A stretch of DNA of 64,000 nucleotides from Paecilomyces variotii (taxonomy: Eukaryota): NCBI GenBank assembly GCA_004022145.1, contig RCNU01000001.1; one strand, written 5' to 3'. The notes beneath the pieces are model-generated. The model did no database searches. It was not told the DNA's origin and saw only the letters and a list, made by a program, of their open reading frames with translations. Positions 9,602 through 16,835 of this stretch are shown here, in pieces (the stretch's first letter is position 1; each line of letters begins with the position of its first letter). The position numbers and the translations under genes were made by a program.

Positions 9602-12030
9602 ATTCATTTCAAACATGTATAAATATTTCCAATGAGTGAGACAATAATAGAATACTAATGTTTATCATTTGCTCCTGACAGAAATAGCTCACGGCCGCGC
9701 AGTACCTTTAAGAACGTCCACTTGAGCATAAATCACAGAACACTTCGTGTCCTGCTGATTGTCGGCGCTCACGGCTTCTTTGGAGATGAGCTGCAAACGG
9801 CTTGTACTACCCTATTGAAAGAGGGGTAGGATAAGAAACGCGAAGCCTCATTGATCTACCTATATAGGATCAAAGAAGATACGCCGGAATTAGCAAAGCT
9901 CAAAATTAGTGGCGGAGGCAGTGCTCCAGGCAGCTGAATTCTAGGATAGAGTCCGTGGGTATAAGAGCTGATAGATTCCGGTATCCTCTAGTTCTCCAAG
10001 CAATCAAGAGATTATTCCTGTTTCAGATGCTCCTTCAGAACCTTTGCTTCCGTAATCCTAGATCTTCATACTGATCGACACGAAGTTCAGGAACAGACAC
10101 CTTTAGTCCCAGCATACTCAGCCACATCCCTCCTTTAGCATACAGGGTGACATTTCCGGCGGCTGAGCTGTCGATACAATCTGGCATCGATCGGAAGCGA
10201 GTAGATCAGCTACCGTCAGGTACGGAGCACTTTCTTTGCGGCTGAGCTGTCGATTATACAACTTTAGTGCTGTGACTCTAATTCGTTGCCTGATGGCTTT
10301 CTGCTACTCGACCAAAAAGGAGCACTCCTAGTTGGTCTACCTGGATCTCTAACATTGCCTACCTAGTCGAAAATGAGAAACGATGCGATGCAACCATCAC
10401 GGATATGCCTGGAACTACATGTCCGCTTTCGACTGACCGTGTTCAGATGCATATTATTGTTATTGCAAGGCCGATGCACAATTCCAGTTTGGGTAAGGCT
10501 TACTTACTATAGTAACGATTGCCACAAGGCTGCGGAAGATAGCGCAAGATCAAAGCGTTAAGTTAGCCCGATAGTGAGGTTTATTGGAGTAGGTAGTCGA
10601 CTGATGGGGTGCCCTTCGGGTAAGTAGTGCTCTCTAGGCTCTTTTCGAAGATGTTGACTGTCATCTTGTAAGGCCGTCAAAATGTCGTGTCGATACATAT
10701 TAACCACAACCCTCGAAATCGGCTCATGTACGAGCTATTGAAGAGTCTGCCATATGGGCCATTTTTTTCCGAATATTTCAAAATGGACCAAAGAACGCGC
10801 ATTCAATCGCTTCACAGCCATCCATCAATTGGAATTCTTAATCACTTTCCGCCCCCAACTTGCCAGATCCACCATCCTTGACCACGTGGTTAGCAAATGC
10901 TCATGAATTTTGGCCAAACCCCTGACCCACGGATGCTCTCCTCGACGTCAGGTACGCCCGGAAATACTTCCCTTGGGATCTTCTGGTGATCCTCATGTCG
11001 GTTGCTTCCGTGGTATCTTAGTCCTCTATTACAAACCACGGATGCTCTCTGGCAGGCGCTATCTACCTGGGCTGCAATGTTTCCCCGGCACCTGCCACGT
11101 GTGTTTTAGGAGTTTAGCTTGGTGGTACTAGAATTCTGCTCTTCGATATGGCTTGCATAGATGTGATAAAATAACTAATCAAGCCTCCTTCGCTCGGCAG
11201 TTGTTATGGATTGGCCTCCGGGGAGTGGAGATAGATCTACCACAATTTTTGGCTTTATATCCTGATCCTACCAATCGTTATCACTAATTTGCGGTGAGAA
11301 AGAGAGATCCAAGATAAGGTGAGAAGATTGGTGCATCCAGCGGCTTCTGAGGCTGAACACTAGGTTGCCTTGTCTTTGCTTTGTTGAGAATTCAACGTCT
11401 CAGCCTTGCGCTATCTAAATATAACCTCCTCGTCTTTGCTTTTATGAGAGTCCAGGAATAAGAGACGTCTCAGCCTTGCGCTAGATATCACCCGGGTGTG
11501 CCTCGCGCCTTGAACTTGAACGGGATTTGCAGTCCTGAGTCCACAATGCCTTTCCAGAAAATTACCAGGGTTGCACAATTGTTGATCATTACTTACACTA
11601 GATACTAATCTGCAGGCAACCAATATGAAAGTGACCAGCTCACCCTGTTGGGACCAGGGTGAATACACGCCCAGTGAAGGTGATAACTCCGGAATCCGTG
11701 CTCTTAGACAGCTTTGATCATTGCCATTCCTGACATTATCGTCTAATCTCTCATTTACACTGCCGCTGAAATATAAACCTTGAACACTTTTACCCCGTTG
11801 AACAAAAAACAATCATCTGAAAATCTATATTGTGAAACGTTCTTTGACCTCCAAATTCGTCCTTTACCTGAGTTGCATGAGCACTGAGTCTTGTATCACC
11901 GACAGGCTACCACTTCAGACCACACAGCACAGCAGTTGGTAGCAAGACGGCAGCTCTTCAAAACAGATTCCAGGCCAAGATGCTTGAGGCAGAAATCCGT
12001 CATGATGCTTCTTCCTGGAGTACCCTTACC

Positions 12031-14403
12031 ATGTCTGAGACGTCATCAATCAGAGTCACCGAATTCACTGTCGGCTGGATTTGCGCTCTGACGGACGAGT
12101 TTATCGCAGCCCGACAGATGCTAGATGAGATTTATACAATTAAAATTGCCAAGTCACATCTGGATGAAAACGTCTACACATGCGGGCGGATTGGGAGACA
12201 TCGGGTTGTGATCGCCTCCCTACCACAAGGTCGTTATGGTCAAGCATCCACTTTCAAAGTGGCATCAGGGATGATGACTACATTTCCATCAATTAAAATT
12301 AGTCTGCTAGTCGGAATTGGCGGCGGAGCGCCAAACTTGAACGTCGAGGGCAGGGATATACGGCTCGGCGACATTGTTGTCGGAACTGCTGTGCTTCAGT
12401 ATACTTCCGGGAAGCGAACACACCACGGACTCGAGAACTTTTACCCTGTCCGTTACATGGATAGTAACCTTCTCGGTCATTCGCAAATTCTCGAAGCGCA
12501 TATTTTCGAAGATAAGCTAAACCTCCAGAGAGCTGCAGAGGAAATGATCAAGAAAACAGGCAAGGCCAAGTTTCAACGCCCTGACCCAGAATCGGACCGT
12601 CTTTACGAATCGGATTACGTTCATGCAGGTAAAGCTTGTGACTGCTTGGGCATTCATTCTAAATGTCAATCCCATGTGGTCGATAGAGAGCCACGTGAAG
12701 AGAACGAGCTGGTTCAAGTTCACGTCGGCAAAATCGGTTCCGCCGATCAAGTCATGAAAGACGCCAGTACACGAGACCAGCTTACCAACGCTCACGACAT
12801 CATATGCTTCGAAATGGAATGCGCTGCTCTGGTGGACAACTTGCGTTGCATAACTATTCGTGGAATATGCGATTATTCGGATTCACACAAGAACGACCGA
12901 TGGCACGGATATGCGGCTGCTGTTGCTGCTGTCTACGCTAAAGCTCTGCTAGAAATCATGCCTTCCTTGGAGGTAGAAGGTCCCCGGGGCATTACTCAGC
13001 AGATTCAGGAATCGATCGATAACGTTGCCAAGAGAGTAACAGAACTAGAGGGACAGGGTGGTCAAAAGGACAAGCTCAGGATCACGGAGGAAGCGGTCGA
13101 GTCCCTTCGAGATGGGATCAACTTGATTGAAAAAGAGCAACAGGAGCTATTGGATACACATCTAGACCACTCTGATCAACTACGCGAAATGCAGGAACAA
13201 CATAGACAGTTATGCGAATCTCTACAAGGGTTGGATCAAATCATCGATCAGCGGATAGCTGCTAGTACGGACGAGCTCAGACAAGAGTGGCAGACTCTAA
13301 AGGACAATGTGGAGGACCAATCTTCGAGACTGGAAACATTACGAAGAGGGTTTGCTCATTGTTCTCGGGCAATTGAAGATACATCATCTGTGTTACGAAT
13401 AATTGGTGATACGATAGGGAATAAAGGAGTTAGCGATGCTGGAAAGATAACGGGAGGGATAAACAACGTCCTTCAAGACACCATTTCTGGAAACGCTCGC
13501 TCAAAGTCCCCTGGACACGCACCGACGCAGCCTAAATTGAATGGTGGAGATAGAGCAACCGACCATCTACATCAGCTCTTACCTCCAAAGGATGTTTTCT
13601 CGAAGAGCAACCTTCGTTTGAAGAATTTCCTAAAGTCAGCAACATCTATCACTATCAGACGATCTGGGCATAGCGGAAGAGAAGATTCGCAAATCCAGAC
13701 AGGCGGTACCATTCCGAGGATCGAAAACCAATATTCGCCTCGATCTTCTCCATATATTCTCAGTCCAGCAGATGTATCAATTCGCTCGTCGCTCTCTTTA
13801 TCTTCTCATATTTCGACTGATCGTGCCTCAGAACGACGTACATATCATGGAGCCATGAACGGCAATGCCGAGAATGGACAGAGTCCAAGAAATTCTGTTG
13901 AATTCTTCCAACCACGAAGGAAGCAGCTGACGGAGCTAACCGATCATTCCACAAAGGTCCGCGATGAAAATCCAGGTAGACCAACAAGGACTCCTCCTTC
14001 GTGGTCGACTGGCAGAAAGCCATCAGCCCGCCAACCCCTGACCCCACAAATTCGACGAGATCGCCCGGAGGTTCAACAAATCAACATGAATGCACGGACA
14101 ACAAGGACAAGTATAGAAAGCTCTTCCTCTTCCTCGAGGTGGCAACAAACAAGCCACTCGTCCATCAACGAAGCTACGAATGGGGTGTTGTCAAGCTATA
14201 CGCCGCGCGCACCAGGCTCCAGATACAGTTCAACGAGGCAAACCCAGGGAGCGGTGGATGCGAATCGTCGCCATCCTCCAGATGAGACATACCAGGCCGA
14301 AGCTGAACCCACTCCCTCTTTCGCGAAGAGACGAGAGTTTTTTGAGCAAATGCAAGATGATAGAAGACCATCGCTATATCGGGGAGACTCGCCGAATACC
14401 TAG
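12031..14403 (+). CDS. PNP_UDP_1 (Pfs/nucleoside phosphorylase) domain protein with coiled-coil and disordered C-terminus
   Basis: Motifs FTVGWICAL, LLVGIGGGAP, DIRLGDIVV, CFEMECAAL and IRGICDYSDSHKNDRWHGYAA are typical of fungal PNP_UDP domains. First ATG in frame is at 12031. Intronless. Confidence 0.88.
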   Translation: MSETSSIRVTEFTVGWICALTDEFIAARQMLDEIYTIKIAKSHLDENVYTCGRIGRHRVVIASLPQGRYGQASTFKVASGMMTTFPSIKISLLVGIGGGAPNLNVEGRDIRLGDIVVGTAVLQYTSGKRTHHGLENFYPVRYMDSNLLGHSQILEAHIFEDKLNLQRAAEEMIKKTGKAKFQRPDPESDRLYESDYVHAGKACDCLGIHSKCQSHVVDREPREENELVQVHVGKIGSADQVMKDASTRDQLTNAHDIICFEMECAALVDNLRCITIRGICDYSDSHKNDRWHGYAAAVAAVYAKALLEIMPSLEVEGPRGITQQIQESIDNVAKRVTELEGQGGQKDKLRITEEAVESLRDGINLIEKEQQELLDTHLDHSDQLREMQEQHRQLCESLQGLDQIIDQRIAASTDELRQEWQTLKDNVEDQSSRLETLRRGFAHCSRAIEDTSSVLRIIGDTIGNKGVSDAGKITGGINNVLQDTISGNARSKSPGHAPTQPKLNGGDRATDHLHQLLPPKDVFSKSNLRLKNFLKSATSITIRRSGHSGREDSQIQTGGTIPRIENQYSPRSSPYILSPADVSIRSSLSLSSHISTDRASERRTYHGAMNGNAENGQSPRNSVEFFQPRRKQLTELTDHSTKVRDENPGRPTRTPPSWSTGRKPSARQPLTPQIRRDRPEVQQINMNARTTRTSIESSSSSSRWQQTSHSSINEATNGVLSSYTPRAPGSRYSSTRQTQGAVDANRRHPPDETYQAEAEPTPSFAKRREFFEQMQDDRRPSLYRGDSPNT

Positions 14404-14731
14404 TATTTCGTCGGCGATAAACTTATTACTAAGGTGTTTTGTAACATTATATTCTTGTAATCCAGTTATTCAGATGTTCTTTAACGATGGACTTCGTCTC
14501 TCCATATTTGAATATAGATCCGACTCTTAGTTAAGTAGTAATTACTCAGGACTTCTGCTTAGATCCGGGGAACCAGTCTCCCCCGCCCACACGGGAGGTT
14601 CTACAGATGGTTTGCATGCGAAGTCATCTCTGTAAATAATAGACTCCGCTGTTTTCATGTATATCATTCGAAAGGGAATCTCAAAATCTTTTCTCGAGCG
14701 GTTGCGTTACGCTGTGATTCTTTATGGAATT

Positions 14732-15919
14732 CTAATTACCCGCAGTTTTATCTGTGGTAATTTCGCCATCTGCTTTGCGCTTCTTCGCTATTCTTTTACT
14801 GCGACGCCTGTGTTCCCCGAAGCGCCTGCAGGCGATGCACTGTCCGTCGTCGTCAAAATAGTGCTCATCCCTAGATCAAGTGGGCATTCAACATTAGATA
14901 TTGTTCCCGTCGACATGATTACACAATGAAAGTAGAACTTACAGCTCTATCTCGCAGTTTTCGTGCGGCACGTTATCCCAGCAACCATCACAGCTACTTA
15001 TGCGATAGGTACAATCATTCAGGGCGGAAGTATGAAGGTTGTACCAGTTGTCAAACAGAGTCCCTTGGAACTTTGGACCTTGAGATGATCCATGTTCCAA
15101 GTTCCTCCCAACGGGCGTGAATTCTGCATCAGTGTCCTTGTCCACTGATACACGTTTGATGCTGACTGGAGGGCCGTAATCGACTTTATCTACCCACACC
15201 CACTCCACGCCATCCTCAAGCATATCTTCTTCATCGAGGTCTTCGTATAAACACGTCTCCATGGCCGGAGTCACATCCTGATCAAAGCGCACGAAGAAGA
15301 GTCCGTTCTGCTGAATATCTTCCCATGACCGACATTCCTTGGGAACAACAATGATAAAGCTGCGGTACCTCCTATCATATGGATGTAGATTCTCTCTCCA
15401 AAATTGAGGTGCACAGCACCAAGAGGGAACGATATGCGGTAGAGGCTCTTTCCCTCTTAGATTGAGGACTGCCTCCTGTGCAGCCTCCGCGACATCCTCT
15501 TCATCCATGCCAGCTGCTCTGGCAGTTGCTTCTGCGGCTGACGCTACCTCTCGATGTAGGTCATGGACAGCCTGTCGTCGGTAGATCTTCTCACGCCGAT
15601 GATGCTGTATGCACTCATCAATACTGTCTAAAGGCGCATATACGTCTATGCGCGGCCAGTAATTCCGCATATTGCCCGCCTCGCATATGGCCTCGCTCTG
15701 TAATAAATTCTTTCCAACCTCGCAGGGGCTAGGAACCAGGTCGTTGAAGCAGTATAGGTGGATGCTTAGCTTACAGATAGCCGAGGAAGGGGGACGCGTG
15801 CCGCCGACAACGGTGTAAGGTCGACCGGCATGATCATTGAACTGGTGAGCTTCGACCTCGACCTTCCTTGGACCCCTGCCACCGGTACTTTTGCGTGCTG
15901 TCTGTTTGGTGCGCGCCAT
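14732..15919 (-). CDS. Non-histone protein with histone H3 N-terminal tail, C-terminal Cys/His cluster and NLS (~371 aa)
   Basis: ATG at 15919 gives MARTKQTARKSTGGRGPRK. The ORF 'stop' lies inside a GTAAGT donor (intron 14871-14942, branch CTAAT, acceptor TAG). Exon 2 reads LDEHYFDDDGQCIACRRFGEHRRRSKRIAKKRKADGEITTDKTAGN*. Confidence 0.8.
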
Positions 15920-16835
15920 GCTGGAACTGGAGGTATAAAAAGAGAAGTAGCTGGCTTGCGCTCGCAACACTGCTTGGCGCTAAGTACCTAAGTAGTGACT
16001 TTCCACAATGATAAACTCAAAAACACATATTGAATCAACAGTCACAATAAAGGAAGCACATGTGCTGATTCAGAGCAAGATAGAGAGTCGTATACTCTTA
16101 TTTCTTCTCTATCAACATATACTCTCCTCTTTTGGAAAACTAGAAGCCCTGAGGCTTTACTGCCTGCTTGGCGGCCGCTGCTGCCTAGACAGATCTTCAC
16201 TTCAGTGTTAATAATCTGCGAGTCAAATCCTAGAGTGAGAAGGAAAACAACAAATGGAAGGTAAACTTGAGACAGATTCAGACCACCGCACCTGAAATGA
16301 GAAGGAAAGAATAAAACTAAAAGTACTGTCTGGCTTTTGCCTTTAAATATAGCATTGCCCTAGCAAGCATAAGCAATTTGGTAAGATCACTGAGGCACTG
16401 AATTGCTGGCCTAGATCTCAGATCTCAACTATTACATAGAGGGGTTGAGGTAAGGGTAAATATGCTCTCAATACTTGCACCTCGCGGGCGATCGTCGGGA
16501 CGCACTCTCTTACATTATATGTGATAGGTCTATAGTTGTTGAGATATTCAGGTTTAAAGAATAGCTATGTTGTATGTGAGACGGCACTGGCCAGGTCGCC
16601 CGGGAAATACGTTAATCTGTTAAGAGACTTGAAACTCCATAACGCCCTCGCTCATCAATCATAACTTCGTGGCCGCATATCACCAAACACAATCGTCCAA
16701 TGCCCATAATCAATATATAGGCATGAGAAAAGGAAGAAAACACAAGCAGAAATGCTAACAATACCCGAGATTCCAAATAAGGAAAGGAAAAAGCATAGAC
16801 AAGGGCATCACAAGTAATCATGGACGACAGTGCAA

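Follow-up and report, generated by a model that had tools for sequence, protein, structure and literature searches.

A histone H3-like tail at the N-terminus of a non-histone protein from Paecilomyces variotii and of most members of its fungal family

We analysed a 64-kb stretch of the Paecilomyces variotii genome (64,000 nucleotides of contig RCNU01000001.1, assembly GCA_004022145.1; hereafter the window), in which a minus-strand gene at 15919..14732 encodes a product of 371 residues and is interrupted by a single 72-nucleotide intron. The original prediction, made from the DNA letters alone, had described the beginning of this gene as a mimic of the histone H3 tail placed at the N-terminus of a non-histone protein. 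The start codon and the 18 codons that follow it (15863..15919, minus strand) encode MARTKQTARKSTGGRGPRK, that is M-ARTKQTARKSTGG-RG-PRK. When this tail is compared with residues 1-18 of H3 (ARTKQTARKSTGGKAPRK), 16 of the 18 positions are identical, the two differences being Arg for K14 and Gly for A15. When residues 1-40 were compared by phmmer with every PDB chain, 136 distinct sequences matched at E ≤ 10 (best E value 9.2e-6); the best 60 of the 136 were chains and peptides of H3, together with constructs and variant peptides bearing the H3 tail. The matches to H3 terminate at query residue 18-21, and no histone fold follows: not one Pfam family was matched at E ≤ 10 by the exon-1 product or at E ≤ 5 by the 371-residue protein, and PF00125 in particular was unmatched. 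Both the mimicry and its abrupt end after the tail, as previously proposed, are thus borne out. As the initiator Met precedes Ala, it should be cleaved off according to the methionine aminopeptidase rule, which would expose a free Ala1 as in H3.

The structure of the gene is well defined. Exon 1 (14943..15919, minus strand) holds codons 1-325 and two bases of codon 326, and the intron (14871..14942, minus strand) reads GTAAGT...CTAAT...TAG. Exon 2 (14732..14870, minus strand; 139 nucleotides) provides the last base of codon 326, codons 327-371 and the stop codon TAG at 14734..14732. Its translation, DEHYFDDDGQCIACRRFGEHRRRSKRIAKKRKADGEITTDKTAGN followed by the stop, is the C-terminus of database entry P0002 ('hypothetical protein C8Q69DRAFT_54671 [Paecilomyces variotii]'), to which the whole gene product is identical, in agreement with the length of 371 residues given earlier. 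A 5670-nucleotide contig of run X1 (labelled 'RNA?') spans 14500..14869 and 14942..16149; it is collinear with the locus over 14942..16149 and skips the 72 bases of the intron, whose ends are CT..AC on the plus strand. Because the contig has this intron-less form, we regard it as mRNA: the gene is transcribed and spliced. The same contig continues into the convergent neighbour, so that it does not delimit a single transcript. RNA runs X2 and X3 gave no match to the locus, which is not evidence of absence.

We then considered whether the tail is actually made, since the gene could be silent or translation could begin at a later codon such as Met84, and in either case the tail would be an artefact of annotation. 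Two observations are compatible with such an artefact, namely three short upstream open reading frames in the 5' untranslated region and the database model of one relative (P0007), which begins at the equivalent of Met84. They are set against a larger body of evidence. The stop-to-stop frame extends over 14939..15979 on the minus strand; the ATG at 15919, from which the reading frame opens MARTKQTARKSTGGRGPRKVEVEAHQF..., is the first one past the in-frame stop, lies inside the spliced RNA contig and has a strong context, with A at -3 and G at +4. Residues D29, Y35, K50, L51 and L55, which are invariant in the family described below, all fall within the 27-83 segment that a start at Met84 would remove, and 55 of 99 relatives likewise begin M-A-R. 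Finally, a contig from the metatranscriptome run X4 matches the locus at 95-99% and represents a closely related expressed sequence. Over the 844 coding bases covered, the listed differences from the window are 19 substitutions (10 synonymous, 9 non-synonymous) without a single indel; the 236 leader bases covered show 12 listed substitutions and all 11 indels, at 15933..16009. The confinement of the indels to the region upstream of 15919 places the coding start at 15919. The earlier assignment of the start and the expectation that the gene is expressed are therefore supported, and an artefact of annotation is extremely improbable.

The 5' untranslated region (15920..16149, minus strand) is at least 230 nucleotides long. 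Its upstream open reading frames, of 6, 8 and 3 codons, start at ATGs 16118, 16061 and 16028, which makes translational control possible. The ends of the X1 contig (16149) and of the X4 contig (16155) give a weak hint that the transcript starts about 230 nucleotides upstream of the ATG; the loose end of the X1 contig at 16149 presumably resembles sequencing adapter.

The H3-like tail is not peculiar to the window's protein. When residues 20-326 only were used as the query, the tail being left out, 43 proteins were found at E ≤ 0.01; phmmer, run exhaustively over 1.84 billion representatives, returned 50 matches at E ≤ 1e-3, and a profile search for the family 99. This family ranges over three classes of Pezizomycotina, with members in the Eurotiales (Paecilomyces, Talaromyces, Aspergillus), the Hypocreales (Fusarium, Neonectria, Ilyonectria, Dactylonectria, Thelonectria, Mariannaea, Clonostachys) and the Dothideomycetes (Saccharata, Aureobasidium). 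The same N-terminal peptide opens most of the proteins. The check that had been suggested, a search with the residues beyond the tail alone, thus recovers homologues most of which also carry the H3 tail. A metagenome scan yielded one locus (L001), which begins at residue 30 and has no tail. No second family member and no H3 gene was found within the window. No description of the family was found in the literature covered, most subscription-journal papers lying outside it, and the family looks like a previously undescribed form of histone mimicry.

For the tail counts we started from 133 stored proteins, the window's own translation excluded, and used those in which the F-x-DH anchor is accompanied by a body motif, 98 in all; the other 35 are N-terminally truncated fragments and five non-family proteins that match the tail only. 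Identity to H3 1-18 reaches at least 16 positions in 12 of the 98, at least 14 in 29, at least 12 in 45, at least 10 in 55 and at least 8 in 77. As a control, the 18-mer was shuffled 100 times and compared with the same 98 N-termini: identity to the shuffled motifs averaged 4.6, whereas identity to the real one averages 10.6. The highest score of any member with any shuffle was 11, so that none attained 12. The consensus of the family tail is MARTKQTARKSTGGRAPRK, and its best kept positions are R8 (80%), P16 (74%), G13 (69%), K9 (68%), G12 and R2 (66% each). In Talaromyces and Clonostachys members the mimicry extends to about residue 24 (APRKQL[SG][SG]KA), K23 included. The distance from the Met to the anchor has a median of 26 residues and a range of 11-46.

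The N-terminal register was analysed on 99 members. Besides the M-A-R starts mentioned above, 48 sequences fit the pattern M-Z-R-x-K and five start with MRTK. These last are the environmental proteins P0086, P0088, P0089, P0092 and P0120, which begin MRTKQTARK, so that Met occupies the position of H3 Ala1. The R2/K4 register is kept there without the Ala. Taken together, these starts suggest that the N-terminal register itself matters. Position 9 is Leu in 7 of the 98 members (P0054, P0111, P0112, P0114, P0116, P0121 and P0106, from Fusarium and environmental samples), which read RRLSTGG; Pro or Arg takes this place in other members from Fusarium. At position 14, Arg is the commonest residue (36 of 98, against 20 with Lys). 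The replacement of K14 by Arg, which the original prediction had singled out, is accordingly real in the window's protein and also a habit of the family rather than a peculiarity of this sequence.

How is the tail maintained? In an alignment of 92 members, the mean column conservation is 0.60 for the tail (residues 2-19), 0.22 for the linker (residues 20-26) and 0.49 for the body (residues 27-350). When the protein is divided into non-overlapping blocks of 18 residues, the tail comes fifth in conservation. The linker, VEVEAHQ in the window's protein (codons 20-26, 15842..15862, minus strand), is thus a fast-evolving segment between the tail and the F-x-D-H-A-G anchor. In the X4 sequence the tail codons carry two synonymous changes (T3 and Q5) and one non-synonymous change, G15S, at a site that already differs from H3. 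These patterns, together with the spread of the family over three classes, agree with the proposal that the tail is kept by selection and does not result from a fresh capture of H3 DNA. The argument from codon usage that accompanied this proposal is weak: A is the third base of 5 of the 18 codons in the tail and of 60 of the 307 codons in the remainder of exon 1, and the 'A-ending rich' character of the tail is not confirmed.

Trees were built from the body only, with FastTree (93 rows) and with a quick IQ-TREE search (88 rows, leaving out eight long-branch rows and three merged models). In both, each of the major clades contains tails that match H3 at 12 or more of the 18 positions. When the label 'at least 12 of 18' is placed on the tree, 17 changes are needed and 12 of them are forced by well-supported branches; both trees being unrooted, such counts alone do not separate gain from loss. 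We infer one origin followed by repeated decay of the tail, which is far more likely than that an identical 18-mer arose separately, and in register, 12 times or more. The repeated decay would also suit a functionless relic, slowly eroding since the 5' end of an H3 gene was captured long ago, and so would the behaviour of the tail within Paecilomyces, where it changes at about the rate of the body. Against such a relic, the bodies are only 35-55% identical, a divergence at which a neutral 18-mer is expected to be as unrecognisable as the linker; yet 45 of the 98 still agree with H3 at 12 or more positions, and each of the three classes includes members that retain 15-17 of 18. We therefore judge a mere relic to be very unlikely.

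The body to which the tail is attached consists of about 300 residues with 13 near-invariant Cys/His and a basic C-terminus. The near-invariant positions include D29, H30, D92, C103, H106, H107, E110, R114, H162, W167, F212 and D213. The best conserved block covers residues 98-115 (15575..15628, minus strand; consensus GSIEECIEHHRREK...) and contains C103, H106, H107, E110 and R114; a second one, residues 153-170 (15410..15463, minus strand; LRGKEPLPHIVPTWC), holds P161, H162 and W167. Two acidic stretches occupy residues 117-152 and 222-240. Towards the C-terminus, a Cys/His cluster (14828..15013, minus strand) has the spacing C303-x6-C310-x2-C313-x5-H319-x2-C322-x6-H329-x7-C337-x2-C340 and runs across the intron; each of these residues is 94-100% conserved among 61-89 aligned members. 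From the spacing, the cluster is presumed to bind zinc. The last conserved feature is the basic stretch R347-K358 (14774..14809, minus strand; RRRSKRIAKKRK, family consensus EYRRRSKR), which resembles a classical nuclear localisation signal and may function as one. All the blocks that define the family (F-x-DHAG-x-YTVV, WPRVDVY, ECIEHHRREK, LPHIVPTWC, DCTYR-x3-C-x2-C and, in exon 2, EHYFDxDGQCxACRR) are found in the window's protein.

The family profile A1 matched 129 PDB sequences at E ≤ 10, and the best 60 of the 129 were all H3, reached through profile positions 1-23. With the PDB sequence search, the C-terminal Cys/His region gave no match and residues 27-326 gave 2, at E values of 0.5-0.8. 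Models from the ESM Atlas, with predicted local distance difference test (pLDDT) scores of 0.35 and 0.32, provided no usable neighbours, and hhalign found no internal repeat in the body (probabilities 0.1-0.7%). The weak Pfam matches scattered among 35 members (RXT2_N in 3, Zn_ribbon_SprT in 3, otherwise single) were treated as chance.

Could the body itself be the partner of the tail? It might bind or modify H3 tails, the N-terminal copy acting as a built-in pseudosubstrate or autoinhibitory ligand that real H3 tails would displace. The tether is very short, as judged from the median of 26 residues between the Met and the first invariant residues of the body, and the 13 near-invariant Cys/His, the cluster of eight potential ligands and the invariant acidic residues would be in keeping with a zinc-finger reader or with an enzyme that depends on a metal. 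Pseudosubstrates typically carry a non-modifiable residue at the acceptor site, and the tail often has Arg at position 14, the acceptor of Gcn5, and in a few members Leu at position 9. The body, for its part, resembles no reader or enzyme in the Pfam and PDB searches described above. An autoinhibited reader or enzyme of this kind appears unlikely to us.

The preference for Arg at position 14 also bears on the idea that the tail serves mainly as a histone-type nuclear import signal for an importin of the Kap123/Kap121 type, R14 making it insensitive to acetylation, with no role towards chromatin enzymes. According to the passages of a study of Kap123 cited here (PMC5677370), this importin binds H3 1-28 through K14 and K23, each with small residues on either side; import is affected only slightly by K14R but is abolished by K14Q. 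The preference of the family for G-R-A at 13-15 and the conservation of K23 in Talaromyces and Clonostachys fit this idea. However, the contacts described in the same passages are restricted to residues 12-17 and 21-26 (PMC5677370), and the family conserves residues 1-13 equally well or better. Moreover, the consensus given there for a Kap123-type signal (small-K-small, six or more residues, then K; PMC5677370) is absent from the window's protein, which has G-R-G at 13-15 and no Lys at 20-26 (VEVEAHQ), and the basic C-terminal stretch is already available as a possible localisation signal. Import as the main role of the tail is therefore improbable.

We propose, with the balance tipping slightly in its favour, that the tail is a soluble nuclear surrogate of the H3 tail, bound or modified by the enzymes and readers of H3K4 and of H3K9/S10. 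The ancestral design of the family was likely an N-terminal copy of H3 1 to about 20, a short variable linker, a Cys/His-rich globular body of about 300 residues and an end resembling a nuclear localisation signal. In this scenario the protein would be nuclear and, having lost its initiator Met, would start with a free Ala1 like H3. The A1-K4 segment could then be recognised by Set1/COMPASS and by PHD and WD40 readers, and the R8-P16 segment by the H3K9 methyltransferase DIM-5/ClrD, HP1, the S10 kinase and Gcn5, so that the tail would be bound and probably modified by H3-tail enzymes and readers. Two outcomes can be envisaged: these factors may be titrated away from chromatin, or the factors, or the readers once the tail is modified, may be recruited to the function of the body. 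The modules retained in the family, A1-Q5 and R8-P16, coincide with known recognition segments, which is why we favour the soluble surrogate. In the portions of the literature on which we rely, PHD fingers require a free N-terminal end, R2 and K4 (PMC8166343), and DIM-5 of Neurospora requires only R8-G12 in vitro and is inhibited by S10 phosphorylation and K4 dimethylation, not by K14 acetylation (PMC3248561). The suggestion of a decoy or recruitment tag for Set1, Clr4/DIM-5, Aurora and HP1/PHD readers, already made in the original prediction, is on sequence grounds the most plausible class of function.

Several points weigh against this proposal. The family sequences, each of which represents a cluster, are not independent of one another in phylogenetic terms. 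The tail has decayed in many lineages, 21 of the 98 members having fewer than 8 identities to H3. Between Paecilomyces tails, 4-5 of the 18 residues are different, close to the rate of bodies that are 75-77% identical; as far as these comparisons tell, the constraint on the tail is moderate and not histone-like. The decay is also modular: Aspergillus section Fumigati retains only MARTKQ and Fusarium lineages only RR[LP]STGG.AP.K. Since different clades keep different halves, a single common target is not assured. Lastly, many well-known species are not among the organism names of the family matches, no search dedicated to absence having been made, and these names suggest that the gene is dispensable.

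Most known cases of histone-tail mimicry come from viruses, together with a small number of mammalian proteins, and involve motifs of 4-6 residues. A close parallel to the soluble surrogate is offered by the human H3 N-terminal mimicry proteins (VRK1, BCL11A/B, SALL, FOG, PCLAF and others; Chen et al. 2021, PMC8166343), a class also marked by peptide binding to PHD, Tudor or NuRD modules that K4 methylation modulates. The rule given in the cited part of that work is a Met, then A/G/S/C/T/P/V, then R-x-K, at the very N-terminus (PMC8166343); the M-A-R-T-K start of the window's protein follows it, as do the 48 members mentioned above. The human mimics described there copy about four residues (PMC8166343), whereas the fungal tails match H3 at 16-17 of 18 positions and extend up to about residue 24, with the K9/S10 region included. 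The carriers differ as well, the fungal one being a family without a Pfam match. PAF15/PCLAF, whose family PF15715 is named 'PCNA-associated factor histone like domain', shares the H3-imitating N-terminus. When PF15715 was compared with 8 relatives, 7 gave sub-threshold matches over residues 1 to about 30, at 12-20 bits for a gathering cut-off of 23.4. Membership in the PAF15 family was rejected: all scores lie below the cut-off, only the first 50 or so of the 121 model positions are involved, and the window's protein gives no match. PAF15 reportedly binds the PHD finger of UHRF1. Influenza NS1, SARS-CoV-2 ORF8 and the automethylation sites of G9a and SETDB1 are said to carry ARKS/ARKT mimics of 4-6 residues, usually internal or C-terminal. 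These share the H3K9-like motif with the fungal tail, which differs in being contiguous, N-terminal and in the correct register. With histone H3 itself, the likeness of the window's protein is limited to residues 1-18 and does not include the histone fold.

EZHIP provides a different model. It is described (10.1101/585729) as a K27M-like pseudosubstrate inhibitor of PRC2, a cellular non-histone protein with a histone-tail-like peptide. By analogy, the fungal protein could be an endogenous regulator of heterochromatin, both a soluble H3K9 pseudosubstrate or competitive substrate for DIM-5/ClrD and a ligand of HP1, and hence a fungal counterpart of EZHIP. The two share a histone-tail-like peptide able to occupy the active site of a SET domain, and the fungal members with Leu for K9 recall the hydrophobic, non-lysine residue that EZHIP-type inhibition places at the acceptor position. 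The window's protein has Lys at 9. Besides, the EZHIP peptide is internal, corresponds to the K27 region and is confined to mammals, whereas the fungal tail is N-terminal. We consider this specific role rather doubtful. If it were correct, the Fusarium members with RRLSTGG would be natural 'K9L' dominant inhibitors.

A second group of sequences deserves mention. P0080, from the basidiomycete Daedalea quercina, and the environmental P0081, P0082/P0135 and P0083 are small unrelated proteins of 197-245 residues, each of which contains four H3(3-17)-like motifs with an ARKSTGG-type core, most of them reading (R)TKQTARKSTGG[RH]APR. In P0081, P0082/P0135 and P0083 the first copy stands at the extreme N-terminus. 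Position 14 is Lys in no copy and is mostly Arg or His. As far as their motifs indicate, these four-copy proteins appear to form a second class of H3-tail mimics in fungi, one that is multivalent; should the heterochromatin-regulator role hold, the basidiomycete proteins would be a second, multivalent answer to the same task.

What is new here is a cellular family that copies 18-24 residues of H3 in the N-terminal register and keeps them across classes of filamentous fungi. Such a family-wide copy points to a built-in competition with, or borrowing of, the H3K4 and H3K9/S10 machinery. In the fungi concerned, heterochromatin governs genome defence as well as clusters for secondary metabolites. 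A caution applies to laboratory practice, as antibodies or mass-spectrometry searches directed at marks on the H3 N-terminus could detect the mimic in Paecilomyces, Talaromyces, Aspergillus, Fusarium and Clonostachys; from its length, we estimate the mass of the protein at about 42 kDa.

The deposited gene models of the family call for some care. Many of them (P0003, P0004, P0005, P0009, P0010, P0013, P0015, P0025, P0033 and others) end ...CE.E[LM], at the conserved intron, and being without exon 2 they lack H329, C337, C340 and the basic C-terminus. Other models are too long: a search for longer forms gave 4 proteins, in which the family protein is followed by an SNF2-related piece or preceded by an LDB19 arrestin domain, and the longer models are P0141 (A. 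thermomutatus, 938 residues), P0047, P0143 and P0102 (Fusarium, 664-674 residues), and P0142. Functional fusions were considered and rejected, as a Met stands just before the tail in P0102, one of the arrestin-type models, and P0141 simply continues beyond the basic C-terminus. The longer models are probably merged neighbouring genes.

The genomic surroundings do not set the gene apart. GC content is 0.40-0.55, with no AT-rich block close to the gene, and no transposon-type recombinase was found among the 19 open reading frames tested. The neighbouring genes are ordinary, their products being a RhoGEF, a PNP_UDP protein with a coiled coil, WD40, CAF1, AMP-binding, S10 carboxypeptidase, copper amine oxidase, M81/MlrC, DUF3632 and TPR proteins and an EcKL kinase. 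The convergent neighbour (11980..14403, plus strand) encodes 807 residues with a phosphorylase-type N-terminal domain (PNP_UDP_1) and a coiled-coil-like region that weakly matches MAP65/ASE1, an architecture that we take to recall the N-terminal modules of fungal NLR-like proteins.

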